A DNA stretch of 64,000 bases from a virus, in IMG/VR virus record IMGVR_UViG_3300009008_000003; one strand, given 5' to 3'. Shown piece after piece: positions 2,986 through 63,582 of the stretch. The first letter of the stretch is position 1. Each line of letters starts with the position of its first letter. Position numbers and translations under genes: made by a program. Below the pieces are notes generated by a model. That model was given only the letters and a program-made list of their open reading frames with translations, was not told where the DNA came from and made no database searches.

Positions 2986-2996
2986 GGACGAGAACG

Positions 2997-3497: not shown

Positions 3498-3726
3498 AAT
3501 GAATACATTTTTAGAATTATCGGAAACAAATCCGACCAAGGAACAGCTAAAGAAAAATGCTGCTCAATACCACGATACCTATCCAGAAGCTAGTCACGGG
3601 TTTGCTCACTTGACAACCTTTGATTTAATGGATGAAGCTGACCGCGATCACATGAGACTCGCGGCTAACAGGAAAGCTTCGGCTGGTCCAATAAGAAATC
3701 TAAAGGAGATCTTTAGAAATGGCTAA
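3490..3726 (+). CDS. Hypothetical protein
   Basis: 78-aa ORF overlapping both neighbours by 8 nt (translational coupling). Confidence 0.5.
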   Translation: MLKMNTFLELSETNPTKEQLKKNAAQYHDTYPEASHGFAHLTTFDLMDEADRDHMRLAANRKASAGPIRNLKEIFRNG

Positions 3727-4030
3727 CACATATTGGGAGTTAATGACCAAGGAAGCCGCTCCTGTCGGTCACCCCTTTTCCAAGACCTTTAGCGAAGAAG
3801 CTCGTGGAGCTTTCGGAAAAGCTACCACTACAGCAAAGCCGGGGGTACATCCATTTAGAGCAGCTGTTCCAAATCCAAATCTAAGTGATTTGTTCGGAAA
3901 AGCAAAACCGCGAAAATGGAAAGGTAAGCTAGGACTTGCAGGCCTCGGTTTGGGTATTGGAGCAGGCTTAATTGGCTTAAATAGTTATGCAAAGGGACAG
4001 CGTGAAGACTATAATAAGAGAGTTTTCTGA
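3719..4030 (+). CDS. Basic hypothetical protein with TYWELMTKEAA leader and C-terminal Gly-rich hydrophobic segment
   Basis: Leader shared with the 8754 ORF; GLAGLGLGIGAGLIGL segment. Confidence 0.6.
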   Translation: MANTYWELMTKEAAPVGHPFSKTFSEEARGAFGKATTTAKPGVHPFRAAVPNPNLSDLFGKAKPRKWKGKLGLAGLGLGIGAGLIGLNSYAKGQREDYNKRVF

Positions 4031-4370
4031 TTCCAAACAAACGCTTACTAAGTTAGGATTCTTGGGTATGCCTAATCCTATCTTTGGTAATTCTCGTTAT
4101 CAGGTTAAGAGTCATCTTGACCTGATAACAGAATTTAAAACCCAAAGACGCATGGCAATGGATGATGGTAGATTCAGGGATGTTGGAAAAATAGACAAAA
4201 ACATAGCCAAGACTCGTAAGAAATATGTGCGTAAATTAGAAGGCTGGAGACGAAGTAAGAGGCTAATGAAAAGTTGGGCCCCATGGACTGCTGGTATTGA
4301 AGCACCAATGGCTGTTCATGAAATAGGTAAAGCTATGAAAGCATCTAGATTAGGAGCAATAAGGTTATGA
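3987..4370 (+). CDS. Basic hypothetical protein; start uncertain (possibly ACG at 4041)
   Basis: ACG-CTT-ACT-AAG-TTA-GGA-TTC (TLTKLGF) aligns with the MLKxLGF leaders at 1031 and 4690. Confidence 0.5.
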   Translation: MQRDSVKTIIREFSDSKQTLTKLGFLGMPNPIFGNSRYQVKSHLDLITEFKTQRRMAMDDGRFRDVGKIDKNIAKTRKKYVRKLEGWRRSKRLMKSWAPWTAGIEAPMAVHEIGKAMKASRLGAIRL

Positions 4371-47155: not shown

Positions 47156-47767
47156 CTACCCAAAGTTGTGAACAAATTTACTAAAATATTGGTCACCTCG
47201 TATCATGTGCAGAAAAATTTGAGTGCCTATAGTTGCGACTATTTTGTTTCCTTGTTGTATGATTCCCTGGTCTAATTCAAATTGTCGTTGGCAACTCATA
47301 TCTTCTTTATCTGTTTTTACGGTCGCCATTAGCGATTCTGTTGTTGTTCGTTCATGTGATGTAAATACCGCAATAGCTGTGCCTTCAGATCTCATATCAA
47401 TAAACTTAAATTTATGTTTATCCCATAGCTCGAACATATGCTTTCTGAATTTTGTGTTGTCCACGCAGCAGATAACATAATCATAGCCTTTATCTAGATA
47501 TTCTTGTAGGTTTTCTACTTTCTTAACCTCTGCTTTGAATATTTGCAGATGATCTTTCCACCTATCCTTTAAAGCTTCTACTTTATGCTTACCGATATCA
47601 TCTTTGGTGAATTTTTGATATTTTATATTCTTTTTTTCAACCGAATCGTTATCCACCATTGTAAAAATATATTCATCTGGAATTTGTTCGGCAATTATTA
47701 ATTCCACAATTTCAAACAGGAACCGGCTACCAATACCGCCCGCCCCTACTACTAATACTTTTTTCAT
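47156..47767 (-). CDS. ThiF/MoeB/E1-like adenylyltransferase
   Basis: VLVVGAGGIGS, VDNDSVEKKNIKYQ, GKHKVEAL, DYVICCVDN, candidate catalytic Cys in MSCQ. Confidence 0.88.
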   Translation of the reverse strand: MKKVLVVGAGGIGSRFLFEIVELIIAEQIPDEYIFTMVDNDSVEKKNIKYQKFTKDDIGKHKVEALKDRWKDHLQIFKAEVKKVENLQEYLDKGYDYVICCVDNTKFRKHMFELWDKHKFKFIDMRSEGTAIAVFTSHERTTTESLMATVKTDKEDMSCQRQFELDQGIIQQGNKIVATIGTQIFLHMIRGDQYFSKFVHNFG

Positions 47768-48228
47768 ACTATTTCTACCTCTACTTCGATAAAATCATCA
47801 AGCCCTCTATCCCATTTCCATAAATGTGGCACACCATCAGCTCCTCCAAGAATACAGTATGGCATATCTAAACCTTTGCCGAGTCTAAATGCATTCTTAT
47901 CTATTTCTGATGGAATCCCTAAACTGCGCGGGTGGTTATGCACTGCTATTGGATGCATATTTGATTTGGGATTCATGGCAGAGGTGGTGAACAATACGTT
48001 CATCATTTGCTGAGGATGCATTTGATAATCAATAATATTGGTTTCTAGAGGTTTGATGTTATCCACCCAACTAAAATTCTGAACAGCCATTCTATGTCTG
48101 TCAGCGTCTTTGTACCGCCCTGTAAAAAATCCACAAAATTCTCTCCCATACATAGTATCTAAAATGATAAGATGCTTTATTAAAGATTCTGGGATACTTG
48201 CTTTTCTTATACTTAGTGTCTCTAACAT
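47764..48228 (-). CDS. JAB/MPN+ metallopeptidase
   Basis: Upstream Glu in REFCG and an exact HxH-x7-S-x2-D (HNHPRSLGIPSEID). Confidence 0.88.
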   Translation of the reverse strand: MLETLSIRKASIPESLIKHLIILDTMYGREFCGFFTGRYKDADRHRMAVQNFSWVDNIKPLETNIIDYQMHPQQMMNVLFTTSAMNPKSNMHPIAVHNHPRSLGIPSEIDKNAFRLGKGLDMPYCILGGADGVPHLWKWDRGLDDFIEVEVEIV

Positions 48229-48247
48229 GTGTTTTCCTTATACTTAT

Positions 48248-48276
48248 AAAAATAGGAGGGCCATTTCTGGCCCTCC
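48248..48276 (-). terminator. Terminator-like hairpin between the Ubl and JAB genes
   Basis: Minus strand GGAGGGCC-AGAAAT-GGCCCTCC-TATTTTT. Confidence 0.6.
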
Positions 48277-48304
48277 CTGGTAGCGATACTTTATGTACCC
48301 GCAA

Positions 48305-49012
48305 TTAGATGCGTAAAGCCTTGGCCAGTTGGTGAGCATGTTGCTGCACAGTGCCTTCCAGCTGTTTCTTGATAGCTGCTAGAATATGTTTACGGGCATT
48401 TAATACATCGTAACGTTCTTCTGTACTTACGCGTAAGGTGAGAGCCTTATGCGCGGAATCGAAGCCTATTACAACCTGGGCGGCGGGTTTGATAGCATCT
48501 GCAAAACTTGCATTCACTGATGTCCCTTTGGCCCAGTCTCTGGTACACATAGTGTCTTCACCGATAGATTCCATTACAGAATTATATTCTTCGGAAACCA
48601 GGTTATTAAACCCAGTTTCTATAAGACCGTATAAAACAGATCTCCACATGAAGATCTCTTTTACTCTTTTACCGTTGGCTACGATGTCGATAACATCGGG
48701 CTCTGTTCCTAATTTTATCGCCAATACAGTATTGCCAGTGTATTTAAAATCATCTGCGACGTTAAATACCACAGCATATTGCTCAGCACCCCCTTCTAAC
48801 GCAGCTGAAAGCAAGATGCTTTCTGCTCTCTCTAATTCTCCGGTAGAAATCTGTCCCGGATCCTTTAGTTCCCCATCCAGAAATACCCACTTGTCTTCAT
48901 CGTCTGCGATTGCTTTGATTTTTGTTAATGCGGCCTCTGGCAGCATATCGTATGGGGTATCACCTTGTGAGCTCATCACTGCGAAATGGATTAATTTTGT
49001 TTCTTTTGCCAT
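48305..49012 (-). CDS. Ubiquitin-like (beta-grasp) precursor: 75-aa domain ending in LEGG plus ~160-aa C-terminal extension
   Basis: GG at residues 74-75 (ILLSAALEGG); adjacent to JAB and E1. Confidence 0.6.
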   Translation of the reverse strand: MAKETKLIHFAVMSSQGDTPYDMLPEAALTKIKAIADDEDKWVFLDGELKDPGQISTGELERAESILLSAALEGGAEQYAVVFNVADDFKYTGNTVLAIKLGTEPDVIDIVANGKRVKEIFMWRSVLYGLIETGFNNLVSEEYNSVMESIGEDTMCTRDWAKGTSVNASFADAIKPAAQVVIGFDSAHKALTLRVSTEERYDVLNARKHILAAIKKQLEGTVQQHAHQLAKALRI

Positions 49013-49033
49013 TAGTACTTATTCCTTAAATTA

Positions 49034-51217
49034 TTATAGTGTTGTAACTTTATGCGCAACTCTTGAATCGTTTGCAACAGTTAACATTCTTGCTACGAGT
49101 ATATCTTGTCCCACGACCCTATGCCCTTTGTCTACAATACAGATATGACTCTTATCTTCTCCGTATACTTCGTGGTTTCCTTCTCTATCTACATAGTAAG
49201 TTTGTTTCTTACCCTTAACTTCGTACGCATTTATGGTTCCATTGTACGTTGTGTTTATTTGCACTTCTTTGGCTTTTAGCATTTTTACTGTGCTTTGTAA
49301 TAATTTTTCTGAGCGTTTAAGTGCTTCTTTGTAAGTTTTGATACCCTCTTTCATCAGATCTATTATTTTATCTGCTGGGATATCGACGATTTTTTCATCA
49401 CTAAATACTGAGGTCATATCTTGCAGTGAGTACGACTGTCGTAATTTTGATTTAAAACTGTTTATATTTCTAATTCTATATTTTGCGTTTTTGAGGCCTT
49501 TAACGTAATTCTTTCCTTTGGTTCTGTACAGGTGGAAAGTATAATTAATGTGCTGGTTGAAGAAGTTATCGTAGTAGTTAACTGAAATGCCTGTAGCTAT
49601 TAGTTTGTGTATAGCTATAGAACAGGATGTTATAGATTTTAGAAATGCGTTGAAAGTGTCATCCGAATCATAACAAATCATTGTTTCTATAACTTCGCCT
49701 AGTTCAGATATGTTAACTCTGATGTCGTTTATAGTTAATCTTCCAATAGTTTTTCCGGAATCGCTAGTCTTGTTTGTTTTTGCCACCTTAGCTGTTATGG
49801 TACCAACAGTTATGTCAAAGGATGCGGTACGACTTTTTACCATGCTTTGCAAATATTGTGCAACGGCTTCTAATACATGATTAAAATTAACATCTGCTAG
49901 CCCAGTTGATCTGTATCCATTTATTTTATTTCTTAACCAGGCTCCGATGATATCTTCATCAACGTCTACTGTGCCATGTTTCATGTTCTCTACTTTTATG
50001 ATTTGATTTTCGTAAGTAAGAATCTTATCTTCGAAAACCATATCATTGAACACTAGTTTTGATTTGTCCTTCAACCTTGTTTTTAGGTTCTTTTTTATAG
50101 AAGTATTCAGCTCTTCTTCTTTTTTCTGTTTTTCTTGAGCTATTAATACTGGAAACAGTGCTTCTTCTAATTCGGAGGTTTTTATCAAAATGGAGTTAGC
50201 TGCTCCTACATGATTAATGTAGGCGTCTATTTGTTGATTCCAATTTACAGCTTTTTTGCACTTTAACATTGTGTCTATATCAAAATCATTAAAGTCTAAA
50301 TATAACGTATTGTGATGCCTATTATCATAGTCATCCTGGTGCAGATAAAGTCTTCCTAGATCAATATAATTGTAATCAACAGTGTTTGCTTTAAACTCTA
50401 AATTTTTTAATGCCAGGTGTTTTCTGAGATTTGCATAGAACTCTTCCGACCCAACTTCTAATTTACGATATCTATAATTATAGGCGGCGCTCGATATTGA
50501 TGCTACCAACGCTCTTCTTATATCGTCTTTTTCTGCTATTCTGATTATTATATGAGGCGAAGAAACATAATCTCCACAATCATTTAACCGATATAAGATG
50601 TTAAGTTGGTCGTCAGTTAATTCTTCTATCTCTGAATATAAAAATCCTTTATCAGTGAGAATTTCCTTCGTGTTATTCAGCCTAAGATCTATAGATACTC
50701 GTTGGTTCATCCCTGCAGTCAGTTTTTGTATTCCATTATTATTATGATAATTATCATTTACACTGCAATATGATAATAAGTTTTTTAATACCTGTAGATC
50801 TTTTGTGTCTTGTTCTGCGTTTAGAACTTTTGTAGACCACCCAATAGAATAATAATGATTAATGCTTAAGTCGTTGCCCCATTTGTCTTTCTTTTCTTCA
50901 CCTTTTCCGTGCGGAGACAAGGTTACCTTAAAAGTATTTTTTATTTGGTGGGGTCTATAGTTGTTTATATTAACTTCTACTTCATCTTCAGTTACGTAAG
51001 AACAGCCTACTACTAATGGGGAATCATTGAGTTGATAGTCCTTAGTAATAGTTACAACATAATTATCTTCGAATAAAGGTTGTATTTTTTTTATATAAGC
51101 TTGTATAACTTCTACTTCTTTATATAAAGAGGTAATGCGTCTTTTGTGATTGAATTCATAAAGACTGGCCATAGTTCTTAATTGTGTCTCGTTTAAACGG
51201 CTTTTATCATTGTACAT
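49034..51217 (-). CDS. Large hypothetical protein (727 aa) heading the Ubl cassette
   Basis: ORF; C-terminal HICIVDKG...DILVARML...NDSRVAHKVTTL segment. Confidence 0.65.
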   Translation of the reverse strand: MYNDKSRLNETQLRTMASLYEFNHKRRITSLYKEVEVIQAYIKKIQPLFEDNYVVTITKDYQLNDSPLVVGCSYVTEDEVEVNINNYRPHQIKNTFKVTLSPHGKGEEKKDKWGNDLSINHYYSIGWSTKVLNAEQDTKDLQVLKNLLSYCSVNDNYHNNNGIQKLTAGMNQRVSIDLRLNNTKEILTDKGFLYSEIEELTDDQLNILYRLNDCGDYVSSPHIIIRIAEKDDIRRALVASISSAAYNYRYRKLEVGSEEFYANLRKHLALKNLEFKANTVDYNYIDLGRLYLHQDDYDNRHHNTLYLDFNDFDIDTMLKCKKAVNWNQQIDAYINHVGAANSILIKTSELEEALFPVLIAQEKQKKEEELNTSIKKNLKTRLKDKSKLVFNDMVFEDKILTYENQIIKVENMKHGTVDVDEDIIGAWLRNKINGYRSTGLADVNFNHVLEAVAQYLQSMVKSRTASFDITVGTITAKVAKTNKTSDSGKTIGRLTINDIRVNISELGEVIETMICYDSDDTFNAFLKSITSCSIAIHKLIATGISVNYYDNFFNQHINYTFHLYRTKGKNYVKGLKNAKYRIRNINSFKSKLRQSYSLQDMTSVFSDEKIVDIPADKIIDLMKEGIKTYKEALKRSEKLLQSTVKMLKAKEVQINTTYNGTINAYEVKGKKQTYYVDREGNHEVYGEDKSHICIVDKGHRVVGQDILVARMLTVANDSRVAHKVTTL

Positions 51218-52365: not shown

Positions 52366-52838
52366 TATAATAATCCTAAGTAATCTTCTAACGAAACTAA
52401 CCAGTCATCGTTGAATTCGTGTATTGGAATGCTTTTTCTTCCTTCATCATCGTAGGCTTTGTCCCAGTAATCGCATATAAGGCTCATAGGAGCCCTGTGA
52501 GCGTGTCTTTCATATAAACTGTAAAAGTGTACTAGAAAAAACCCATCGCCTCCTAGAGCGTCCCACAGGCGCAAAAATTCGACCTGGTGTTGCTTAAAGT
52601 AACTAAGCGGAAGAGACGTTTCAGATTTGCATTCTTTGGCGTCAAAGGCAATGGCTTTACCCCCGGATAAAACACCTATAAAATCCACTGTGCTCAACTG
52701 CGGAATCAAACCAGCTTTGGTTGGTACAATGGGTGTTTCTATCTTCTGGATCTGTGCTAATCGTTTCTTCCGGTATTCACGGTTGCACTTTTGTACTGCT
52801 TTTTCAAGCGTTTTACCTTTGGGGGTTTTTTTAGCCAT
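52365..52838 (-). CDS. recU: RecU-like Holliday junction resolvase
   Basis: STVDFIGV...AIAFDAKE...HQVEFL...GGDGFFLVHF. Confidence 0.85.
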   Translation of the reverse strand: MAKKTPKGKTLEKAVQKCNREYRKKRLAQIQKIETPIVPTKAGLIPQLSTVDFIGVLSGGKAIAFDAKECKSETSLPLSYFKQHQVEFLRLWDALGGDGFFLVHFYSLYERHAHRAPMSLICDYWDKAYDDEGRKSIPIHEFNDDWLVSLEDYLGLL

Positions 52839-53607
52839 TTTTATAAAATTTCCTAAAATCTCTTATTTTAATTAGTGGAGATTCTTCTATGAGTTTTGGG
52901 TGATTATTTGTGTACACAAATAGATCTCCATTGTCCGTTTTCATTCCGCCCTTAATGAACATATCGAAGTTATAGTTGTCTTCTAAATAAGAATCGAGCC
53001 ACTTTATTTTGTTTTTTTGTGGTGAATTATATTCTGTGCTCCAGAAATCCCTTTTCATGTACGGGTTCTGCAGCATGCTATAATGAAACATACCATGACC
53101 ATCGATGTGGTAAGGGTTTCGACCTGGCCAATTATTAGTAGGAGTAAATTTATGAGCGGTGTTTTCTATTCTCCATAATCTCATTCTATTGCTTTTTAGA
53201 TAGCGAGTCATATTAACGAAAAAGAACTTTTCGTTAGTTTCAATTGCGTTATATTTTCCTGATTCGATGATTTTCTTTATTCTTAAAATTTCATCATCAA
53301 AATAGAATTCGTCTGCGTCTAGTAACCATATCCAATTTCCTTCTTCATATAACTCACTATATTGCAGCATAGAATTCATAGTAGCTGCTTTTGTGGTACT
53401 ATGGTTATTTTTAAATACTACATCCACTAAAGACACCGGGTAGTTTTTGCATAAGTCCAATGTACCGTCTTCGAATTTTTCCAAAGAGATGCTATGCGCT
53501 CCCACAGATACTAACACTTCATCGCACATGCTAATGGCTTGTTTAAGAGCCACTTCGATCCAATGTTCACAGCCCCAGGCGGTCATTATACCAATTATTT
53601 TATTCAT
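52831..53607 (-). CDS. GT2-like (GT-A fold) glycosyltransferase
   Basis: DEVLVSVG, WIWLLDADEF (DxD), RMRLWR, FHYS. Confidence 0.7.
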   Translation of the reverse strand: MNKIIGIMTAWGCEHWIEVALKQAISMCDEVLVSVGAHSISLEKFEDGTLDLCKNYPVSLVDVVFKNNHSTTKAATMNSMLQYSELYEEGNWIWLLDADEFYFDDEILRIKKIIESGKYNAIETNEKFFFVNMTRYLKSNRMRLWRIENTAHKFTPTNNWPGRNPYHIDGHGMFHYSMLQNPYMKRDFWSTEYNSPQKNKIKWLDSYLEDNYNFDMFIKGGMKTDNGDLFVYTNNHPKLIEESPLIKIRDFRKFYKNG

Positions 53608-54382
53608 TTATTAGTAATTTTTTTATTTTTTCTTTATTTAAATTGAAATACACGTTATTAATTTTATCATAGGTGAAAGCTTCTTCTATCACTTTTTCGA
53701 TGTCTATAATATTTTTTAAATCTTTGATATCGTCTTGTTCAAACAGGTGATTGGTTGTTATCTGGGTTATGGGCTTTAGTTTCGAGATTAAAAAGCCTAA
53801 AGCAGCTCCGTGGCTAATTCCATAAAAACCTGTTATTGGGTAGGATAGCGCGTGTAATAGATTGGTACCTGTTATCTCTATGGCCCCGCCTGCTAAAATT
53901 CCAGCGCCTACAATAAGTATATTAGTAGGGTAACCGGTAAGAAGACTCATTGCATCGGTCGCTTGTATAGCGCTATGATTAGTGATATTTTTAGAAAGTA
54001 AGCTATCTATACAATGGGCTATTATATCAAATTTTGTATCCGCCCATACCTGATATGGTACAGTTTTTAAATAGTTTTCAATTATTTCTACTGTTTTTGG
54101 TCTGTGTCTTTTTATGCTATGTTTTCTATGTTTATCCCAGTACACCGCCCAGGAAGTAGAACTTGCGCCTGCTCCGGTAGTAGGGTAACAAGTGATGGGA
54201 TTCTTTGCCAATATTTTGGCGGTATCTATAACTGCCCCACCCCCGACAGCAACTACGTCTTCTTCGCTGTCAATCTCTGCCAAAAGAGAAATATCTGGAG
54301 CTTCTGTTACTATTCGTGCGCGGTCGTATTCAGGTAGTAAATCTCTGGTAGATTTAGAACATACGAGTAATGTATTATTCAT
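53600..54382 (-). CDS. Iron-containing alcohol dehydrogenase, likely phosphonoacetaldehyde reductase (shortened)
   Basis: VGGGAVIDTAK, YPTTGAGAS, DIIAHCIDS, HALSY...SHGAA; directly downstream of ppd. Confidence 0.8.
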   Translation of the reverse strand: MNNTLLVCSKSTRDLLPEYDRARIVTEAPDISLLAEIDSEEDVVAVGGGAVIDTAKILAKNPITCYPTTGAGASSTSWAVYWDKHRKHSIKRHRPKTVEIIENYLKTVPYQVWADTKFDIIAHCIDSLLSKNITNHSAIQATDAMSLLTGYPTNILIVGAGILAGGAIEITGTNLLHALSYPITGFYGISHGAALGFLISKLKPITQITTNHLFEQDDIKDLKNIIDIEKVIEEAFTYDKINNVYFNLNKEKIKKLLINE

Positions 54383-54839
54383 TTAATTCCCTTTTTATTA
54401 TTACAGCATTTGTGGCGCCTTCAAGAAGTACACGGGCTTTTTTGCCTTCTTTGTTTATTTTTATTATGGAAGTAATCCCAGGATAGGTTCCTTCTAAAGG
54501 AGCACATGCGTAGCCACCTACAGATTCATGGCACCCGTTATCTAGAATATATACAAACAAATTATCCGGAGCCTCGTCTCGTATCGTGTGGGTTATTCCT
54601 AAATGCATAAGCAGGGCGGCATCTCCGCTTATTACTACTACGGGCTTGTTTGTGTTGAGGGCCATACCCAAACCTATACAAGGAGCCAGTCCCATACTGC
54701 CCTGCATGTAGAATATGTTTTTGTTGTGCGGGTACTTATCGTACATCGCCCTTGATATATAGCCCGTGCTAGTGATGTAAATAGCTTTATCCCCGTGTGT
54801 AGAATAAATATGAGTTAATGCTCGATCTCTACTTAGCAT
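54375..54839 (-). CDS. ppd: Phosphonopyruvate decarboxylase, TPP-binding (beta) subunit
   Basis: FYMQGSMGLA...IGLGMA...SGDAALLM...LDNGCHESVGG. Confidence 0.85.
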   Translation of the reverse strand: MLSRDRALTHIYSTHGDKAIYITSTGYISRAMYDKYPHNKNIFYMQGSMGLAPCIGLGMALNTNKPVVVISGDAALLMHLGITHTIRDEAPDNLFVYILDNGCHESVGGYACAPLEGTYPGITSIIKINKEGKKARVLLEGATNAVIIKRELNE

Positions 54840-55218
54840 TATTACTACCTTTCACAATAATGTAATTATCGTAATTAATTAGTGTAAGTAAGGACTCATC
54901 TACTTTGCCCATAACCGCATGCTGGGGGAGAGAATGTCGATGTCCGATTATTAGTAATGGTTTTATATTATGAGGTATACATAAGCTTGTTAGCGGGTTT
55001 ATTGTGTTGCCCAAGCCGGAATTTTGCAGGTATACGCAGCTTTTCTTCCCAGCCAACTCAGCCCCAAAAGCAATGCCTATGGCTTGTCCTTCATTAGCGG
55101 CTATTATGTGTTTTATTTCGCTGTCTATTATTTCGTCTATAAGAGGCTTTAGCCCGCTGTCCGGAACACCTACAAAGAAATTATAGCCCCTGTCAAGTAA
55201 ATGTTGTAATTTAATCAT
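54829..55218 (-). CDS. ppd: Phosphonopyruvate decarboxylase, N-terminal (alpha) subunit
   Basis: FFVGVPDS...[12 protein letters not shown]...[17 protein letters not shown]. Confidence 0.85.
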
Positions 55219-56494
55219 GAGGTATTAACTTTAATATTTCTTTAATTGGTAAGCAAAGATTATTAGCTTCCCAAGATCTTTTATGTTTTAGTATAGAAGT
55301 TGCTGTAGTTAGCATAGCGGGGTATGAGCTACGCAATAAATGATTAGCATATATAACTATATCTACGCCCATGCTAATTAGCTCTTCTTCAGTAATAGTG
55401 TTATAGGTAGAAGGGACTACTACTAAGGGTACTTTTATTTTAAGCTTCTTGTACTCGTTACAAAATGCTTGGATTTCATCGGGTTTGGGGCTCTTGCTGT
55501 GTATCATAATACCATCGGCTCCGGCCTTGATATAAGCTTTAGCTCTTTTTACGGCGTCTTTTAGTCCTTTGCCCAATATAAAACTTTCTATTCGAGCTAT
55601 TATCATAAAATCTTTTGTGATTAATGACTTTTTACCTTCTAGTATTTTATAGCTAAACTCTTTTATGGTATCTTGTTTCTGCGAAGACGTGTCGGCATGT
55701 AGAGAATTTCGTTTATTACCTATTTTATCTTCTATTATAACTGCGGAAACTCCTAGCCTTTCTAAGTGCCTAACAGTAAATTTAAAATGTTCTACAAGAC
55801 CTCCGTTGTCTGCATCTACTATCATAGGCTTTGTAGTTACGTTAAAGATTTCATTTAGGGTTTGATTGATGGTAGTTATATCTACATATTGGATATCTGG
55901 TTTACCTTTTGACGTAGAATGAGTTAAGCTGCTTAGCCACATTCCGTCAAATTCACTTCGTTCATGCTGTACCTTTTCGACTATTAGGCCAGTTAACCCG
56001 TTATGTACTTCTAATATTTTAACAATAGGCTTTGCTTCGATTAGTCTTTTAAGAGTTTTTATTCTGACATTGGGAGTTATGCCGAGGTCCTTTTCATAGT
56101 TTTGTAATTTTGTAGATGATATATCTGAGGTATATGGTACATCTATAACCTGGCCGCCCCATTCGCTTAGTTTGTCTATAACAGCTTGTCTGGTTTGTTT
56201 TTGTACTCCTTTTTTCCAATCATCTCCGTGTACGACATAATCTGGTTTTAATAGTTCTAAATTTGGTATATAATCCAGGGTAGTTTGCGGCACTACCTTA
56301 TCTATGCCTTTAATATTTTCTACTACTGTTTTGCGCTGCTCATAGTTCAGCACGGGTAGTCTTTTGTAGCTAGCAATAGCTGCGTCGGTTAGTAATCCTA
56401 TGGTAACACTGCCATGCTGCCTGGCTACTTTAATAATATTTAGGTGTCCGTGGTGTATTATATCCGCACACATCCCAATGTATACAGTTTTCAT
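55211..56494 (-). CDS. pepM: Cytidylyltransferase-phosphoenolpyruvate mutase fusion
   Basis: N-domain [10 protein letters not shown]...VVHGDDW; C-domain with the PepM signature EDK-x5-NS ([10 protein letters not shown]), [20 protein letters not shown]. Confidence 0.93.
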
Positions 56495-56495
56495 A

Positions 56496-57542
56496 TTAAT
56501 CTACATAATTTAAGTCGTGTTCTAATAAGTTATCTATAACGGCTAATATGCGGCTAGCGCAAGCTCTTCCAGTATAATCTATATATTTAGTAGTAACTCT
56601 TTTTCTTTCTTCTCTATAACCGTCATCAGTACTTGCCTTGTCAATGGCGGGTAACAAATCTTGAAATTCGCTTATAATTTTACCTGCACGGTCTTCTAGT
56701 TCCCAGGCTACTCCCCTTGCAGGAAGCGTTTTAGTTTTAAAGGGGGCAAGTCCTAGATGAATTACAGGTTTATCCATAAGATAGAAATAGCTATTAACGC
56801 TGGATAAATCGCCTATTAACATGTCTGAATATCTAAAATATGGAAACCCATAGCGGTCATCGTTTACATGATGTGCGTATACATTGTAAGCCTTAAAGAT
56901 ATCCTTGTACACAGATACCCAGTTTTTTGTGTATCTATGCGACTCGTGTAAACGTATTACAAAATTAGCGTCGTGTTTATTTACTACGTGATTACAAAGG
57001 ATTTCTACACGTTCCTTTTCTTTTCCGTCTTCCCACCAATCTACAAACAGACCTCTTTCTTGCTCTTGGTTCCACGTAGGCGCGTACAGAATAGTCTTTT
57101 TGTCTGGGGCTAGCCCCCGATCACTTAAGAATTGATTTTTAAGTGACACATCTTCATGCTTTAGCAAATCTATGGATAGAGGCATGCCAATTACTATTAC
57201 ATCATTATAACCTATTTTAGCATATTCTTTCTTCATATACTCGCCGTATACCAATAGGTATCTTTGGCATTTCTTTTCATTTTGTACCTGGGCTTTTTGA
57301 TCTTGATTTTTTAGCCAACCGATTCCGCCAAAACCATGGCCTACATGGAGTACTTTATTTACTGGGTAGGGACCAGGAGTTAGATGTGAGGTTATTATAA
57401 GATCTGCGCCTTCTCCTGACCCTTGCTTTTCTTTTGTCCTGACATCGTGCCAGGTTATTTTATATCTACTCGCTTCGCCCAATAGGTTTTTAATTGAATA
57501 TGCATCCCCCATTTTAGAGGCATAAAAGTGTATGTGTTTCAT
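56496..57542 (-). CDS. TagF/TagB-like CDP-alcohol phosphotransferase (candidate CMP-phosphonate transferase)
   Basis: [29 protein letters not shown]...DKPVI. Confidence 0.75.
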
Positions 57543-58258
57543 AGCTTTATCTCATCTAAATCAGTTATAAAGTCAACATACCAATCTGGGTGATATCTTT
57601 TTTCCCAGTTAGGTTCTTTTGTAGAGTATATTTTTTTGCGCGACAGCCCCGCTACGTATACTATAAATCCTGGATGTCCAATAATTATTTTGGCATTATG
57701 AATTAGAGACATAGCCTGTGGTATTGAAGTAGTGTTCATGTAATTAAAGCAATTCTCTATATTAAACGCAGGCAAATCTCCGGGCTCGCATGTTCCAACT
57801 AGTCCTATTTTGTACTCTTTGTTATGTTTGTTTATAAAATTCTTAATAGAGTTTACGCTGAATCTTCGAGTACTATTTCTGCCTGCGTATGGAGAAATTA
57901 TTATGTCAATATCTGTTAATCCCTTATCATTGTTTTTCACATTTACTATGCTATCAACAAAAGGGTCTGTTTCCCAAGATATGGGGTCGCCTTCGCTTTC
58001 TGCTCGCCACCCCGGGCCTATCTGGTAATCAGCTATATTTGTATAATTTTCTATGTCTGCATCAGTAGTAACTGGAACAACTAAGTGATTTATTTCGTGA
58101 TACAGGTAAAAAGCATTTATAGCGGGCAGCAGTTTTAAAGGGCGCATTGTGTGCGTCAACAAAACGTCTTTCTTTTTGACCGGAGAATTTTTAGAGTATA
58201 ATTTTGCTACCATCATAGCCGCGTCTCCAAGACCTCCTCCTCCCCATATATTAGTCAT
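57539..58258 (-). CDS. GT9-like (GT-B) glycosyltransferase
   Basis: GGLGDAAM, IIISPYAG, IGLVG, LIHNAKIIIG. Confidence 0.6.
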   Translation of the reverse strand: MTNIWGGGGLGDAAMMVAKLYSKNSPVKKKDVLLTHTMRPLKLLPAINAFYLYHEINHLVVPVTTDADIENYTNIADYQIGPGWRAESEGDPISWETDPFVDSIVNVKNNDKGLTDIDIIISPYAGRNSTRRFSVNSIKNFINKHNKEYKIGLVGTCEPGDLPAFNIENCFNYMNTTSIPQAMSLIHNAKIIIGHPGFIVYVAGLSRKKIYSTKEPNWEKRYHPDWYVDFITDLDEIKL

Positions 58259-58905
58259 CTATCTCTCTTTTCTTTAGTACAATCATAGTGTCGAGTCTAT
58301 CTATCTGTGTATACAGTGAGAAGATAGATTCCCCAAAATCAACTTCACCTCTTGTTTTATTTCCGTATGATTTTCTGAAAAAATCGTCTATAAATAAGAT
58401 ACCACTATCGTTCATAAATTCGTGTACCTTATAAGCACAGAAAGTACGTGCGCGCCCGTCTATTAATATCTTGTCGAATATCTTTACTCCTAAATCGTTA
58501 ATTTTGTTGACATAATCTCTATATTGCCAATATCTACAAATTGATGAATATGGTCCCTCTTTGGCGTATGGGTATTGATTCAGTATATCATTATATTCTT
58601 TTTTTTGGTATTGTCCAAATTCCATGTACCTTTTCATCAAATATTTCTTCTAATTTATTACCCGGGTCTATTTCTTTGCTGTACGCCTCTCCGCCATAGT
58701 TAGGCGATACGAAGTAATAATGTATATTTTGGCGTTTGCTTGTTTCAGGTACTAATTTATTGTACCATTCTTTTTCGTGCTCTATTGAATAATACTGTTT
58801 TGACCAGTTTGAAAATTGTAAGGTGCTTCCACCAGATCCGTATTCTAGCATAATGTCTTCAGGGGTTAAGTAATTTTCTATTCCGTTTACCTGTGCTTTA
58901 GACAT
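58251..58905 (-). CDS. Class I SAM-dependent methyltransferase, split by a 1-nt frameshift at the A8 run (T8 at 58599-58606)
   Basis: The upstream frame has MLEYGSGGST...SIEHEKEW; the downstream frame has FDKILIDGRAR...GILFIDDF. Removing one A joins WTIPKKEYNDIL. Confidence 0.75.
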
Positions 58906-59626
58906 GAATACTTGCATCTGTATCACCCCATATTTTTTTATAATCTATTTTCATTTGTTCGTATCTATTATTAATATCTTTATCAAATACACCTTTACCT
59001 GCGTAATGAATTATGTATGAAGAAAACCTATCTTCTTTATTATTCCAGGACTCAGAAAACATGGTCATATGATTCCACATATAGGACAACTCTTTGATTC
59101 TGAATCCCTGATTGTGTATTTGATAGCCCAGTAGGGAACAGTCATAACCAGTGTTAAGCCACCATTCCCCATTTATTGGCTTAAAGATATTTCTATGCAT
59201 TTTTGAGGTCAAAAAAGTCCCAACGTTTGGGTAGCCATCGTGCCAATTTACTGACCCAAATTTGTTTTGAATATCGGTAATACGTCGTTTTCTATCTTCT
59301 TTTCTACTGCCAACATCTTCGTAAATTACGCCTATTTTATCTACTGGTACAAAGTCGAACGGGTTAGGACATTTATTTGTTATAATCATATCCGAGTCTA
59401 GATAAAGTACCCTATCGTAATGTTCATACAGATCATATATGTTTAATATCCTATAATGGTCTGTGTTGGCGTAGCCTGCCCCGTGTCTTTTACAACATTC
59501 CGACGGGTTCGATATCACTTCAAAATCTGCGTTCCACAAAGCTGCAAATTTTTTGAATAACGGATGCGTTATATCCGTAATAGGCTTTATAAATTCATCT
59601 GCTTGAGTAGTTACCAATAGCTTCAT
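58898..59626 (-). CDS. GT8-like glycosyltransferase
   Basis: VLYLDSDMII (DxD), NVGTFL, WNH, IIHYAGK. Confidence 0.7.
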   Translation of the reverse strand: MKLLVTTQADEFIKPITDITHPLFKKFAALWNADFEVISNPSECCKRHGAGYANTDHYRILNIYDLYEHYDRVLYLDSDMIITNKCPNPFDFVPVDKIGVIYEDVGSRKEDRKRRITDIQNKFGSVNWHDGYPNVGTFLTSKMHRNIFKPINGEWWLNTGYDCSLLGYQIHNQGFRIKELSYMWNHMTMFSESWNNKEDRFSSYIIHYAGKGVFDKDINNRYEQMKIDYKKIWGDTDASIHV

Positions 59627-60543
59627 ACTAGGTGAGGTTTTACATTATTTATAATATGAGTTATCTCGTCGTCACTTAGCTTCTCGTTGAACGGAATGCT
59701 TAGTGTTTGTTTTTCTGCTATTTCTGATTTCTCCAGAACGGTGTTCTGGGCGTAAACTGGGTGTTTGTGTAAGCATTTATAATGAAGACCGGTAGCGATA
59801 TCTCTGCTGTGCAGGTTTTTGCTGATTGTTTCATTATTTACTACATTAATTCTGTATAAATGGTTACTAGTATTATTACAACCGAAATTATAATTATAAT
59901 GTATTCTAATATCTTTTAACTTTTTTAATTTTAATTCATAGGTTCTAAAATTATTGAGTATAACAACGGCCTGGACACTATTCATGTACATTTTCCAGCC
60001 GGGGAATTTTATATCCCTGTTCCACGAATTATGACCAGTACCCATGCCGTTGAAAACAGCCTCTCTAAACCAGTTAATTTTTTCTTTATCATTGCTAACC
60101 ACGAGTCCTCCGTCTATACCGGCAAGCGGCTTAGTCGGGTAAAAGCTAAAGATCATTAGGTCGTGTGCGTTAGCTTCCTGGGCAAATTGATTGTGTTCTA
60201 GCTTTTGAGCAGAGTCTATTATTTTATAGTCTCCGAAATTGTGAAGTGTGTAGGATCCTCCTACCCAATTTATATCATCTATAAAATTGACTTTGTTACC
60301 GGAAGTTATTATGGCGTTGGCTACTACCGGCGGCAGTAAGGACGGGGCATTTATAACTAAATCTTTATTTCTTACCAAGGCTAAGAAAATAGCGCTCGTA
60401 GCACTGTTTACAGCGCAAGCATATTTAGCCCCCACGTATCGTGCCAACAGGGTTTCAACTAACCCTACTCTCGGATCGTGAAGCATGTGCGAAAACGAGC
60501 TAGTGTCTATTATATGATTTTCTATATGAAATAGCTTTATCAT
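59623..60543 (-). CDS. DegT/DnrJ/EryC1/StrS PLP-dependent sugar aminotransferase (compact)
   Basis: AVNSATSAIFLAL, IIDSAQ, FSFYPTK (PLP Lys), GGLVV, LSIPF. Confidence 0.85.
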   Translation of the reverse strand: MIKLFHIENHIIDTSSFSHMLHDPRVGLVETLLARYVGAKYACAVNSATSAIFLALVRNKDLVINAPSLLPPVVANAIITSGNKVNFIDDINWVGGSYTLHNFGDYKIIDSAQKLEHNQFAQEANAHDLMIFSFYPTKPLAGIDGGLVVSNDKEKINWFREAVFNGMGTGHNSWNRDIKFPGWKMYMNSVQAVVILNNFRTYELKLKKLKDIRIHYNYNFGCNNTSNHLYRINVVNNETISKNLHSRDIATGLHYKCLHKHPVYAQNTVLEKSEIAEKQTLSIPFNEKLSDDEITHIINNVKPHLV

Positions 60544-61292
60544 TTTCTGTAAATTTCTAAATATTTTATCGTATCACCTGACCCCCATTGGGGTATCTTG
60601 TCGACTAGTGTTAGCCCGAGTTCTTGTAAAACGATGCATAGATTATCATGATACTTAGCATTGGTATCCAAGGCTAATTTATAGTTATTGATGAATCTAG
60701 CGGTTAGTAGCAATATCCCATCGTTGTTTAAAGCATCAAATAAAAGATTAATTGTAGATATTAAATTAGGAACATGCTGCAGCACCTCAAAGCAGGTGAT
60801 GGCGTCATATTGTTCTAGTTTAGGTGATTCCCCAAATTCTATATCAATAGTATGTATGTCTAAATTTCTATTTGTAAACCGCCATTTTGCGAAATCAAAA
60901 GTTAGTCCTGGTATATCACAAGCACAGGCAGTTAGGCCCGCTTCGTTTTGTTTGATGCTGTCTTGCCCTATACCACACCCAAAATCTAATACGGTTTTAC
61001 AGTTATTTTCTATCAGCAGGTTCACACAACTTTGGACTAGACGTTTTTTCTTTTCGCCCGAATGATATTCTATACATTCTGGTATATAGTTTTCAGTGGT
61101 GCTATAAAAATTATATATTGATTTTAAATCGGAAGTGGATACAGTGTCTAGCCATTCTTTTTCAGTCAAATGCTGCCATTTAGTATAACCTTTATAATAG
61201 TTGTCTATTTTTTTAAAGCATTTTTCTAGATCATCTTCTGGTATCTTTAAAAATTTAGCAGCCTCTTGTAATAATTCATTATCTATTAGCAT
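60540..61292 (-). CDS. Class I SAM-dependent methyltransferase
   Basis: VLDFGCGIG, YDAITCFEVLQHV, LNNDGILLL. Confidence 0.85.
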   Translation of the reverse strand: MLIDNELLQEAAKFLKIPEDDLEKCFKKIDNYYKGYTKWQHLTEKEWLDTVSTSDLKSIYNFYSTTENYIPECIEYHSGEKKKRLVQSCVNLLIENNCKTVLDFGCGIGQDSIKQNEAGLTACACDIPGLTFDFAKWRFTNRNLDIHTIDIEFGESPKLEQYDAITCFEVLQHVPNLISTINLLFDALNNDGILLLTARFINNYKLALDTNAKYHDNLCIVLQELGLTLVDKIPQWGSGDTIKYLEIYRK

Positions 61293-61665
61293 TTTTTATC
61301 CTTATGAATTCATCTTTATTTAGGATATAATCATTTATATCATACTCAGTCGAGCATATGGATAAGAGTACATCATTGCCGGTATGAAAAATTTGGGAAT
61401 CCCATATTAATTTATCTAAAAAGAAGCTATCCCCGGATTTTAGGAATTTGGAAACAGTATTTATGCCATCGAAGGCTATAACTTCTATAACACCTTGGAC
61501 GCATATTAACACTTGTTGGGTGTTATAATGCGCGTGGTTTCCTCTTTCCTGGCCCTGTGGCACGTTGTAAATATAGAAAAGTCTTTTAGGTATAAATGGT
61601 AAAGTTAATAAATTTACGGGCACTAAAGTGCCGTCAGCCGCTTCGAATTTATTTAGTGGTTTCAT
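61279..61665 (-). CDS. FdtA/QdtA-like cupin NDP-sugar 3,4-ketoisomerase
   Basis: PFIPKRLFYIYNVP...RGNHAH...LICVQG. Confidence 0.85.
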   Translation of the reverse strand: MKPLNKFEAADGTLVPVNLLTLPFIPKRLFYIYNVPQGQERGNHAHYNTQQVLICVQGVIEVIAFDGINTVSKFLKSGDSFFLDKLIWDSQIFHTGNDVLLSICSTEYDINDYILNKDEFIRIKNANR

Positions 61666-62626
61666 AATGATTTTTCCAAAAATCTATCATTTCATCTAAT
61701 AAGGTTTCGAACGTATATTCAGGCACCCAATTAAAAGTTTTATTAAATTTTGTTGAATCGCCTTTTAAATATTTAAGTTCTTCCGGTCTAATGTGTTTGG
61801 GGTCTTGTATTACATAGTCCTCATAATTTAATCCTACTTTTGTAAATACGTACTCACAGAGATCTCTAATAGAGAAAGCTTGCCCGGTGGCCACTACAAA
61901 GTCATCTGGAATACTATGTAACATTATTAAATTCATGGCTTTTACATAATCTTTTGCATGTCCCCAATCTCTGCAAGAGTCTAAATTGCCCAATTCTAAT
62001 TTATCTTGTAACCCTTTTCGTATTCTAACTGCTGCCTTCACGATTTTATTTGTAACAAAGTTTGAACCCCTTCTCGGAGATTCGTGATTAAATAGTATAC
62101 CATTGCATGCAAATAGTTTGTACGCATTTCTATAGTGCTTTACTAAACTATAAGAAAAAAGTTTGGCACAGCCATAAGGGCTTGTCGGGCTCATGGGTGT
62201 ATTTTCATTTTGAAATCCGTTTGGATTAATATTGTTACCAAACATTTCTGATGATGATGCTTGGTAAAATTTCGCTCTAGGTGAATGGTTGCGGTAGGCT
62301 TCCAGTATATTTAAAGTACCCAATGCGTCTGTTTTTACCGTAAATTGTGGTATTTCAAAACTTATTCTTACGTGGCTTTGTGCGGCAAGGTTATATATTT
62401 CACTTGGTTGTATGGTCTTTATTAATCGATTTAATGCCGATTCGTCTAAAAGGTCGCAATAGTCCGTGTTAATTTTACCATTTAGATGCGAGATGCGTGT
62501 TTTCTGATGTTCCGGCGTGGAATTTCTCCTAAGTGTTCCATAAACCTCATATCCCTTATCCAATAAAAATTCAGAAAGGTAGCTCCCGTCTTGTCCAGCA
62601 ATACCAGTTATAAATGCTTTTTTCAT
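61649..62626 (-). CDS. gmd: GDP-mannose 4,6-dehydratase
   Basis: AFITGIAGQDGSYLSE, YNLAAQSHV, FYQASSSEMFG, SPYGCAK, LFNHESPRRG, RDWGHAKDY. Confidence 0.95.
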   Translation of the reverse strand: MKKAFITGIAGQDGSYLSEFLLDKGYEVYGTLRRNSTPEHQKTRISHLNGKINTDYCDLLDESALNRLIKTIQPSEIYNLAAQSHVRISFEIPQFTVKTDALGTLNILEAYRNHSPRAKFYQASSSEMFGNNINPNGFQNENTPMSPTSPYGCAKLFSYSLVKHYRNAYKLFACNGILFNHESPRRGSNFVTNKIVKAAVRIRKGLQDKLELGNLDSCRDWGHAKDYVKAMNLIMLHSIPDDFVVATGQAFSIRDLCEYVFTKVGLNYEDYVIQDPKHIRPEELKYLKGDSTKFNKTFNWVPEYTFETLLDEMIDFWKNHYETTK

Positions 62627-63582
62627 TTAATTATACCCTCCCCCCTGCTTTTTAAAAAAGCTACCCAAGCCATCTTTATCCCATCTTCCAATGAAATAGA
62701 TGCTTTCCAACCTAGCGATGTTAACCTACTAACGTCTAAATGTTTTCTGGGAGTACCGTCCGGTTTGGAGTCGTCCCAGACAATTTCACCCGTGTGACCG
62801 GCGATGCGCTGGATCAGCTCAGCCAGTTCACGAATGGTGATATCGCTGCCGGTGCCGACATTAAGCGGCAGGCTGTCGGAGTAGTTTTCCATCAGGAAGA
62901 GACAGGCATCTGCCAGATCGTCCACGTGCAGGAATTCCCGGTAGGGAGAACCGCTGCCCCAGAGGGTGACCGGCTGCTGGCCGGCTTCCACGGCCAGGTA
63001 AAACCTGTGCAGCATCGCCGGCAGCACGTGTGAACTTTCAAGGTCGAAGTTGTCGCCGGGACCGTAAAGGTTGGTCGGCATAGCGGCGATGAAGTTTTTA
63101 TTATACTGTTCGCGGTAAGCCTGAACCCCCTGTATACCAGCGATTTTAGCTAAAGCATAACTACGATTAGTTTCTTCTAGCGGGCCTGTCATTAAAGCTT
63201 CTTCTTGTATAGGTTGTTTAGCTAGCCGTGGATAAATACAGGAACTACCTAAAAATAGTAATTTTTTAACATTTGTATCGTGGGCCGCCCGCATAACATT
63301 AATTTGAATCAGTAGGTTTTGTTCCAAAAATTCTACAGGAAATGTAGAATTAGCTAGTATTCCTCCAACTTTAGCGGCCGCTAGAAAAACATATTCTGGC
63401 AGTTCTGTTTCAAATAAATTCCTTACTTGTTTTAAACAGGTAAGGTCATAATCAGTTCTTTTTGGTGTAACTAAATTTTCATATCCGTTCCGTTTTAGGG
63501 CGCGTACTATAGAAGATCCCACCATACCGGAGCAACCTGCTATATAAATTTTACTTTTTTTATCCATATTTAATCGTTCCAA
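62623..63582 (-). CDS. fcl: GDP-L-fucose synthase
   Basis: IYIAGCSGMVGS, LAAAKVGGI, LGSSCIYP, YALAK, MPTNLYGPGDNF, REFLHVDD, PDGTPRK. Confidence 0.95.
   Translation of the reverse strand: MERLNMDKKSKIYIAGCSGMVGSSIVRALKRNGYENLVTPKRTDYDLTCLKQVRNLFETELPEYVFLAAAKVGGILANSTFPVEFLEQNLLIQINVMRAAHDTNVKKLLFLGSSCIYPRLAKQPIQEEALMTGPLEETNRSYALAKIAGIQGVQAYREQYNKNFIAAMPTNLYGPGDNFDLESSHVLPAMLHRFYLAVEAGQQPVTLWGSGSPYREFLHVDDLADACLFLMENYSDSLPLNVGTGSDITIRELAELIQRIAGHTGEIVWDDSKPDGTPRKHLDVSRLTSLGWKASISLEDGIKMAWVAFLKSRGEGIIK

Follow-up and report, generated by a model that had tools for sequence, protein, structure and literature searches.

Whether a phage can synthesise a carbon-phosphorus (C-P) compound for a glycan of its own is the question raised by five minus-strand genes at 53600-57542 of a 64,000-nt stretch of viral DNA. 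This stretch, referred to below as the window, comprises bases 32869-96868 of the 189,182-bp IMG/VR record IMGVR_UViG_3300009008_000003. The five genes encode a TagF-like transferase, a fusion of a cytidylyltransferase (CyTase) with phosphoenolpyruvate (PEP) mutase (PepM), the alpha and beta parts of a phosphonopyruvate decarboxylase (Ppd), and an iron-dependent alcohol dehydrogenase (Fe-ADH) (Table 1). They are separated by a 1-nt gap or joined by 8-11-nt overlaps, and the same packing continues into a GT2-like glycosyltransferase gene and recU. An original prediction, made from the nucleotide letters and a list of open reading frames (ORFs), had read these genes as a complete module for the synthesis, activation and transfer of 2-hydroxyethylphosphonate (2-HEP), and all five ORFs lie where it had placed them. 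Our analysis leads to a similar view. The phage probably makes cytidine monophosphate (CMP)-activated 2-HEP by a streamlined route of its own, and the TagF-like enzyme then tags a glycan, the activities, donor and acceptor being those that we infer below. The basis for this reading is the gene identities, catalytic motifs, fold, purifying selection, carriage by a phage and the absence of the enzymes of competing branches.

Gene identities and predicted product

The PepM domain of the fusion scored 374.4 bits against TIGR02320, for which the equivalog cut-off in NCBIfam is 319.55, and lower against the sister families, namely Pphn_pyruv_hyd (143 bits, cut-off 374) and the methylisocitrate lyase family prpB (103 bits). 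Grouping with the isocitrate lyase family had been named as a way in which the original prediction might fail, and the PEP mutase score is far above those of methylisocitrate lyase and phosphonopyruvate hydrolase. The EDKx5NS signature is present as E255, D256, K257, N263 and S264, aligns to the motif of the Mytilus PEP mutase and is invariant in 10 relatives. The domain also matched the PEP mutase structure 1m1b with 155 bits. With a PF01467 match (E 4e-15) for the N-terminal domain, the predicted fusion with its EDK-x5-NS signature was recovered in full. The HxGH (H14, G16 and H17) and ISST (S126, S127 and T128) motifs of the CyTase are invariant among relatives. Its best PDB match was the CyTase domain of Fom1 (5x3d, 186 bits over 133 aa), which condenses cytidine triphosphate (CTP) with 2-HEP, as Rice et al. 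2019 (PMC6697681) state in citing Cho et al. 2017. Homology to Fom1, an ADH encoded alongside and the lack of a transaminase suggest that the phage domain is likewise specific for 2-HEP and CTP.

For both Ppd parts, TIGR03297 (a model of ~360 positions) was the best family, ahead of sulfopyruvate decarboxylase. The best PDB match of the alpha part was 9iz3_A, itself a split Ppd alpha, and the beta part matched 9iz3_B (E 2e-18). Alpha keeps the catalytic Glu of the PYR domain (ANEG) and the YxQNSGxGN motif (here YLQNSGLGN), and beta keeps the thiamine-diphosphate/Mg motif (GDA...LMHLG...DNGCHESVGG); the predicted identity of the two as Ppd alpha and beta agrees with these results. The ADH found its best NCBIfam family in TIGR03405, the phosphonate Fe-ADH. 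It retains the GGG dinucleotide loop and the Asp/His metal ligands, and G47-G49, D53, K56, D119, H177 and H191 do not vary between the cassette ADHs of viruses and cells. The AlphaFold2 (AF2) model reached a pLDDT of 95 and a pTM of 0.92, and Foldseek matched it to 1o2d (E 1.5e-16, TMq 0.78) and to the sulfoacetaldehyde reductase 6jko (TMq 0.80). As modelled, the small ADH keeps the two-domain Fe-ADH fold.

The end product of the four biosynthetic genes is predicted to be CMP-2-HEP. The C-terminal PEP mutase domain would convert PEP to phosphonopyruvate, and the two-subunit miniature Ppd would take this to phosphonoacetaldehyde, pulling the unfavourable equilibrium forward. The miniature Fe-ADH would then yield 2-HEP, which the N-terminal Fom1-type CyTase would combine with CTP to give CMP-2-HEP. 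The complete genome contains no Aminotran_5 (PhnW-type) gene in a search with positive controls, no radical S-adenosylmethionine (SAM) gene in a search that matched in control genomes, and no ThyA-family gene in a search whose control matched in 10 of 14 genomes. These absences remove the 2-aminoethylphosphonate (AEP) branch, Fom3-type methylation and the usual hydroxymethyl-pyrimidine DNA route. The preference for HEP over AEP, first argued from the lack of a visible AEP transaminase, thus extends to the whole genome as far as Aminotran_5 is concerned.

The early fosfomycin pathway of Streptomyces wedmorensis (Fom1, the Ppd Fom2 and the Fe-ADH FomC) has the same four activities and the same PF01467-PEP mutase fusion, and CMP-2-HEP is the product common to both (PMC6697681; on the phage side it is predicted). 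This likeness of the first three enzymes and the CyTase to the Fom1/Fom2/FomC set (PMC6697681), together with a related contig in which a B12-binding radical SAM gene adjoins the cassette, would suit a cassette that makes a free small-molecule phosphonate. Such a product might be a fosfomycin-like antimetabolite or a HEP phosphorus sink, with cytidylylation only transient, as in Fom1. We regard this as very unlikely, since neither a radical SAM gene (Fom3-type or other) nor later tailoring genes such as an epoxidase or a peptide ligase were seen in the phage, the cassette is translationally packed with glycosyltransferase and sugar-nucleotide genes, and the TagF-like gene lies 1 nt upstream of the fusion. 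The phage further differs from the fosfomycin pathway in its split and short Ppd, its 260-aa ADH and its glycan-synthesis context.

Phage carriage and the miniature viral form

The carrier record has direct terminal repeats (DTR) and a CheckV completeness of 100%. According to PHROGs, its plus-strand arm encodes TerL, a prohead protease-like protein and a tail sheath, and its minus-strand arm a family-A DNA polymerase. The closest cultured relative has only 29% identity in TerL. At the level of the whole genome, the carrier is a complete uncultured tailed phage, not host DNA.

DTR, TerL and a tail sheath in a CheckV-complete record make a chimeric join unlikely. Other lines of evidence also place the cluster on phage DNA, as originally supposed. 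The GC content is uniform across the cassette region (0.35-0.39), and the chain of overlapping ORFs is unbroken from the sugar genes through the cassette to recU and dut. Identical PepM and TagF-like proteins are present on further ~189-kb contigs, and also on short contigs that come from two other JGI samples. In addition, a 136.6-kb contig from a separate assembly has a TagF-like gene (53% identity) followed by PepM, alpha, beta and ADH in the same order, with the same glycosyltransferase run upstream of the cassette as in the phage. Against this evidence, it is scarcely credible that the cluster is cellular DNA misassembled onto a phage contig, or that the related 'viral' contigs are cellular islands. 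The latter idea draws on the fact that the relatives are uncultured contigs, that streamlined cellular islands are in principle conceivable for the marine copies, with their GC of ~0.31-0.34, and that the cellular matches are those listed only, so that further cellular clade members may exist. On the other side, the PepM clade that holds the window contains no cellular row among the 80 best species-genome matches, and in one marine relative the island ends in small ORFs and a Mom-family gene. When 50,697 phage records were searched with the DNA of the module, nothing matched, and the protein search turned up only two short, unannotated fragments of gut 'Bacteriophage sp.' that have a full-length fusion.

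For the cellular comparison, one genome per prokaryotic species was used and the best 80 loci were taken. At least 80 cellular loci from many phyla were listed in which the CyTase-PepM fusion is 58-66% identical to that of the phage. The fusion is followed by a single-chain Ppd (~375 aa) and then by an Fe-ADH (~365-385 aa) in 66-76 of the best 80 loci, and because of this shared order the CyTase-PepM/Ppd/ADH set is a widespread cellular cassette. The viral form is a different one. In the phage, six related contigs and ~27 of the 46 IMG/VR loci (retrieved with an alignment query), Ppd is split into parts of 114-153 and 151-169 aa and the ADH has 207-289 aa; many marine metagenome contigs also carry this miniature form. 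The early impression that the Ppd subunits and the Fe-ADH are shortened therefore holds against the 80 cellular loci listed (Ppd ~375 aa, ADH ~370 aa). Compared with cellular Ppd, alpha is missing a loop of 5 residues as well as the final ~50 residues of its PYR domain, and beta is missing the C-terminal ~40 residues. The miniature ADH has five deletions, amounting to ~110 residues in total.

Several observations weigh against the proposed pathway. Ppd alpha and beta, at 117 and 100 bits, are both far below the TIGR03297 cut-off of 312.5, and the ADH reaches 59.7 bits against a TIGR03405 cut-off of 423.7. Deletions remove about 25-30% of each fold, in the Ppd halves as in the ADH, and the beta motif reads GDA in the window and GDG in relatives. 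Moreover, none of the ~27 other IMG/VR copies has a TagF-like gene within 4 kb of its cassette, a point taken up in the next section.

The short lengths and the scores below the equivalog cut-offs would be expected if Ppd and ADH were decaying remnants of a dead pathway, with only PepM/CyTase or nothing still active, and the neighbouring gene at 58251-58926 is indeed split by a frame change. The pattern across copies makes this highly unlikely. The viral copies, from ~27 IMG/VR contigs and many marine contigs, are 40-78% identical, have recurring lengths and contain no stops. For all four genes, pairwise dN/dS among them lies between 0.10 and 0.33, dS being near saturation, and all family-invariant residues that were checked are kept in the Ppd halves and the ADH, whose model has the high pLDDT given above. 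When 1.84 billion cluster representatives (50% level) were searched with the miniature ADH, 31 relatives were found at E <= 1e-30, and ~75 mostly short representatives (200-290 aa) ranked before full-length forms appear. These data support the view that the shortened enzymes are a distinct conserved viral form under purifying selection, not products of decay. That the miniature form is strictly viral is not established.

In the PepM tree (FastTree, midpoint root), the window falls into a clade of 25 rows with support 100 and no cellular row. Besides the window, this clade holds one IMG/VR contig and, at 72-77% identity, marine metagenome sequences; most viral copies belong to it, and the PepM sequences of DPANN and Marinimicrobia lie outside it. 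Contigs L004 and L005 form a second viral clade, and L003 also branches separately. In a comparison of whole records, three other IMG/VR cassette records had almost no other genes in common with this phage, and the cassette therefore moves between unrelated viruses. Searches for TerL, sheath, Gp23 and nucleocytoplasmic large DNA virus (NCLDV) capsid in four other IMG/VR records found nothing.

Some related contigs differ in what adjoins the cassette. In L003 (the same as L128, a 23.9-kb IMG/VR contig), a 460-aa ORF at 2921-4303 with a weak cupin match lies directly upstream of the PepM fusion and the miniature ADH, and no Ppd was detected on this contig. The ORF could be an MpnS/HEPD-type enzyme of a viral methylphosphonate or related route. 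On the 136.6-kb contig, a B12-binding radical SAM protein (413 aa) and a second radical SAM protein flank the cassette, and a different phosphonate may be made there, recalling Fom3, which methylates CMP-HEP. In the very large IMG/VR contigs L139 and L141 (425 and 115 kb), the gene after the PepM fusion (50% identity) encodes a full-length Ppd of 377 aa in a single chain, and an ADH search gave no match. This cassette is a different, cell-like one and possibly of the AEP type.

Proposed transfer to a glycan and known systems

The TagF-like protein scored 68 bits against PF04464 (gathering cut-off 22.1). Its AF2 model has a pLDDT of 81, and Foldseek ranked TagF entries 1-10 (top 3l7x, E 4e-14, TMq 0.70), followed by TarL and TagF-like capsule polymerases. 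Both results agree with its identification as a TagF-like transferase, although a family profile of the protein searched against PDB sequences gave only noise and no TagF match. H69, H199 and H262 are invariant in 8 relatives and are candidate equivalents of the TagF catalytic histidines H444 and H584. The phage protein shares PF04464 and the proposed transfer with CMP leaving with the wall teichoic acid polymerases TagF and TarL. It differs from them in consisting of the catalytic GT-B core alone and in its presumed donor, CMP-HEP instead of CDP-glycerol.

The enzyme would most likely attack the phosphonate phosphorus, with CMP leaving, and the product would be a sugar-O-P(O)(O-)-CH2CH2OH phosphonate ester. 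TagF performs the same chemistry on CDP-glycerol, and a TagF-type attack is chemically straightforward because CMP-HEP is the phosphonate analogue of a CDP-alcohol. Since HEP carries a free hydroxyl, polymerisation is conceivable, and the enzyme might extend HEP into a teichoic-acid-like poly(hydroxyethylphosphonate).

That the TagF-like enzyme uses CMP-HEP is suggested by gene adjacency. In the phage and its 136.6-kb relative, the TagF-like gene occupies the slot directly upstream of PepM. The lack of such a neighbour in other viral copies means that the TagF-like gene is not an obligate partner and could use a donor such as CDP-glycerol. Several relatives, among them most of the marine ones, have an unannotated gene for a 375-408-aa protein in this slot, fused in frame to PepM in L002 (Table 1). 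Pfam at E up to 1 gave nothing for it, and the only lead is a resemblance to sulfatase/BcsG-type phosphotransferases in the Atlas, from language-model features. It is a candidate alternative phosphonyl transferase. As either a TagF-like gene or the 375-408-aa gene is found there, different families seem to fill the transferase slot.

On this evidence, the TagF-like enzyme might use host CDP-glycerol or CDP-ribitol while another, unrecognised enzyme attaches HEP. Most viral cassette copies are without a TagF-like neighbour, several hold the sulfatase/BcsG-like gene instead, and two TagF-like relatives adjoin stand-alone cytidylyltransferases without PepM. We still hold this to be rather unlikely, given the exact position of the gene upstream of PepM in both the phage and its closest relative. 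Furthermore, Pfam and NCBIfam scans revealed no glycerol-3-phosphate or ribitol-phosphate cytidylyltransferase in the island, and the Stackebrandtia-type cellular HEP locus has a PF04464 gene too.

The soluble glycosyltransferases encoded nearby would build the glycan in the cytoplasm, using GDP-fucose-type and aminosugar precursors. No transmembrane segment was detected in any of the ~30 island proteins and no multi-spanning flippase- or polymerase-like ORF in the genome, which means that the glycan would have to be built on a cytoplasmic acceptor. As rough estimates, virion proteins are the foremost candidate acceptor, though a tentative one. Lipid-linked precursors of the host envelope at its cytoplasmic face are somewhat less favoured, and DNA or something else has an outside chance.

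Decoration of phage DNA with the glycan and phosphonate, a base hypermodification against host nucleases like the glycosylated hydroxymethyl-pyrimidines, would fit the setting of the island among nucleotide and replication genes (ThyX upstream, dUTPase and RecU downstream) and the solubility of all island enzymes. In L114 (1471-2631 and 7001-8454), a TagF-like gene and a stand-alone CyTase lie near a 5-hydroxymethyldeoxyuridine DNA kinase domain gene (HMUDK_hel), and virus glycosyltransferases build multi-sugar DNA glycans (Pyle et al. 2024, as cited in PMC12619734). However, the complete genome is without a ThyA-family hydroxymethylase, and at least nine glycosyltransferases together with fucose and aminosugar synthesis far exceed the need of any known DNA glycan. 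No HMUDK match was found in the genome either, in a search whose controls also gave no match. Modification of DNA is accordingly quite unlikely for this phage. The arrangement in L114 is, in its own right, a hint at a possible role of some TagF-like phage enzymes in the hypermodification of DNA.

The proposed synthesis and tagging of a glycan has parallels in cells. The cellular HEP cassettes of surface-polysaccharide loci (Stackebrandtia, Bacteroidota, Alteromonadaceae and DPANN) have the same gene order and fusion, with glycosyltransferase neighbours and a CDP-alcohol-type phosphotransferase (PF04464 or LicD). The locus of a Stackebrandtia relative contains PF04464 and Rhamno_transf genes, both families also being present in the phage island, and a Paraglaciecola locus has LicD in place of PF04464. 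A HEP conjugate was purified from the exopolysaccharide of Stackebrandtia (as cited in PMC8942020). These loci differ from the phage in the single-chain Ppd and the full-length, PhpC-type ADH, and the phage carrier is without membrane export genes. The Pnt pathway of Treponema denticola, Atopobium rimae and Olsenella uli (PMC6697681) follows the same logic, from a phosphonate through CMP activation to a surface glycan. It uses AEP, the PhnW transaminase, a PntC of PF12804 (LicC-type) and LicD-like transferases, whereas the phage has no transaminase, a PF01467 CyTase and a TagF-like transferase.

Parallels in viruses are fewer. In a survey of RefSeq viruses and 364 huge phages, Li & Horsman 2022 (PMC8942020) detected PEP mutase (Ppm) only in one metagenome-assembled genome (MAG) of a giant virus (NCLDV). 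There, the virus-borne Ppm adjoins aminosugar genes and was read as serving a viral phosphonoglycan; that MAG differs from the phage in belonging to a eukaryotic virus, in its Ppm-Ppd fusion and in its AEP branch. Borg elements have a PepM-CyTase fusion. In a full-text literature search (pepM, phosphonate or PEP mutase with phage or virus), we found no description of a phage-encoded phosphonate pathway, which agrees with the statement in the original prediction that this is not a characterised viral pathway. What we describe is a pathway known before, now seen in a new carrier and with a distinct, miniaturised architecture.

Viral glycosylation itself has precedents. The chlorovirus PBCV-1 has its own GMD/fucose synthase and glycosyltransferases for capsid glycans. 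Capsid and tail glycosylation is also described for mycobacteriophages (Freeman et al. 2023, as cited in PMC12619734). Soluble virus-encoded glycosyltransferases, GDP-fucose genes and the absence of a flippase or polymerase are likenesses to the present island, but virion glycosylation is known in those viruses and is a possibility in this phage. A further difference is that no phosphonate is known in the virion glycans of chloroviruses or mycobacteriophages.

If the proposed pathway operates, no earlier phage would be known to make a C-P compound for a glycan of its own. Of the dissolved organic phosphorus of high molecular weight (HMW) in the sea, about a fifth to a quarter is phosphonate, whose producers are only partly known. 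Viruses would join them as a source through a recurrent virus-borne HEP cassette. The most abundant phosphonates in this fraction are 2-HEP and methylphosphonate (Acker et al. 2022, PMC8931226). It is a rather doubtful, wider proposition that diverse marine viruses produce 2-HEP glycans with virus-specific miniature enzymes, placing a phosphatase-resistant phosphonate on virions or infected-cell surfaces. In that case, viral lysis would feed the marine 2-HEP pool of HMW dissolved organic phosphorus (and that of methylphosphonate, where MpnS-like genes co-occur). Acker et al. 2022 (PMC8931226) proposed cellular phosphonoglycoproteins as a defence against phages; if phages make phosphonoglycans too, the idea that cells evade phages by them needs revising. 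A thiamine-dependent decarboxylase and an Fe-ADH that are naturally ~25-30% smaller, with the checked invariant residues kept, would also be useful for defining minimal catalytic cores.

Surrounding glycan island

The cassette belongs to an island that runs from 52831 to ~6 kb past the window end, where five more glycosyltransferases are found, giving at least nine glycosyltransferase-like genes in total. The original prediction had placed the cassette between recU/dut and sugar genes. Pfam supports both flanks, and the sugar genes can now be specified as Gmd, Fcl, an FdtA-like isomerase, a methyltransferase and a DegT aminotransferase (Table 1). An RmlB-type dTDP-sugar identity was considered for the dehydratase and the epimerase and rejected, as NCBIfam assigned them to Gmd and Fcl.

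Table 1. Coordinates of the cassette genes, their island neighbours and the alternative slot protein (window positions unless a contig is named)
Feature	Length (aa)	Position	Strand	Evidence
TagF-like CDP-alcohol-type phosphotransferase, candidate HEP (phosphonyl) transferase	348	56496..57542	-	PF04464 E 9e-19
Fom1-type cytidylyltransferase (residues 1-135) + PEP mutase (residues 146-427)	427	55211..56494	-	TIGR02320, PF01467, PF13714
Phosphonopyruvate decarboxylase alpha, PYR-domain core	129	54829..55218	-	TIGR03297 E 8e-34, model positions 2-123
Phosphonopyruvate decarboxylase beta, PP-domain core	154	54375..54839	-	TIGR03297 E 1e-28, model positions 171-286
Miniature group-III Fe-alcohol dehydrogenase, predicted phosphonoacetaldehyde reductase	260	53600..54382	-	TIGR03405 best family
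GT2-like glycosyltransferase, weak	258	52831..53607	-	PF00535 E 1e-4, PF13704 E 2e-4, both just under cut-offs
Short GT-B (GT9/heptosyltransferase-like)	239	57539..58258	-	Atlas neighbours: GT9 and viral clusters, TM 0.76 by query
One gene in two overlapping frames	111 + 129	58251..58926	-	match to single ORF in another viral contig
GT8-like glycosyltransferase	242	58898..59626	-	PF01501 E 1e-5, 25.4 bits (cut-off 24.3)
DegT/PseC-family sugar aminotransferase, short	306	59623..60543	-	PF01041 E 1e-28; TIGR03588 E 2e-26
SAM-dependent methyltransferase	250	60540..61292	-	PF13489 E 2e-13, related models
FdtA/WxcM-like sugar 3,4-ketoisomerase	128	61279..61665	-	PF05523 E 5e-27
GDP-mannose 4,6-dehydratase (Gmd)	325	61649..62626	-	TIGR01472 E 1e-114, 383 bits (cut-off 415); PF16363 E 2e-113
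GDP-L-fucose synthase-like epimerase/reductase (Fcl)	319	62623..63582	-	NF047922 E 2e-134, 448 bits (cut-off 500)
Unannotated slot protein	375-408	L007 8899-10035, L010 8778-10004, L002 6867-7991		upstream of PepM

The GT2-like gene overlaps the ADH gene and recU by 8 nt each. The short GT-B protein had no Pfam or NCBIfam match. The two frames at 58251..58926 match successive segments (32-80 and 97-166) of one 207-aa ORF on a different viral contig (G004/L005), and a sequencing error, a pseudogene or programmed frameshifting are candidate explanations of the split. A promoter scan gave results at chance level, and the first strong minus-strand terminators downstream are at 48277-48254 and 47147-47129. 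In the minus-strand region 47156-51217, a 727-aa protein is encoded directly downstream of dut, and no strong minus-strand terminator lies between it and the glycan island before 48277.

Among the neck and tail proteins encoded on the plus strand at 17752-39017 of the window, the dipeptide SG is ~3-fold over expectation and GS is at expectation; a 1995-aa protein has 61 SG and 19 GS, with 18 expected. The flanks of SG are hydrophobic and beta-branched with no clear motif, so that it may be a structural repeat instead of a glycosylation sequon and is not taken as evidence for the acceptor.

Many island enzymes, in the window (52831-63582) and in L006 (2439-8792), are short compared with typical cellular homologues, including the GT9-like proteins (239-271 aa), the DegT aminotransferase (306 aa) and a GT2 protein of 228 aa. 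Miniaturisation thus seems to be a property of the whole island, beyond Ppd and ADH.

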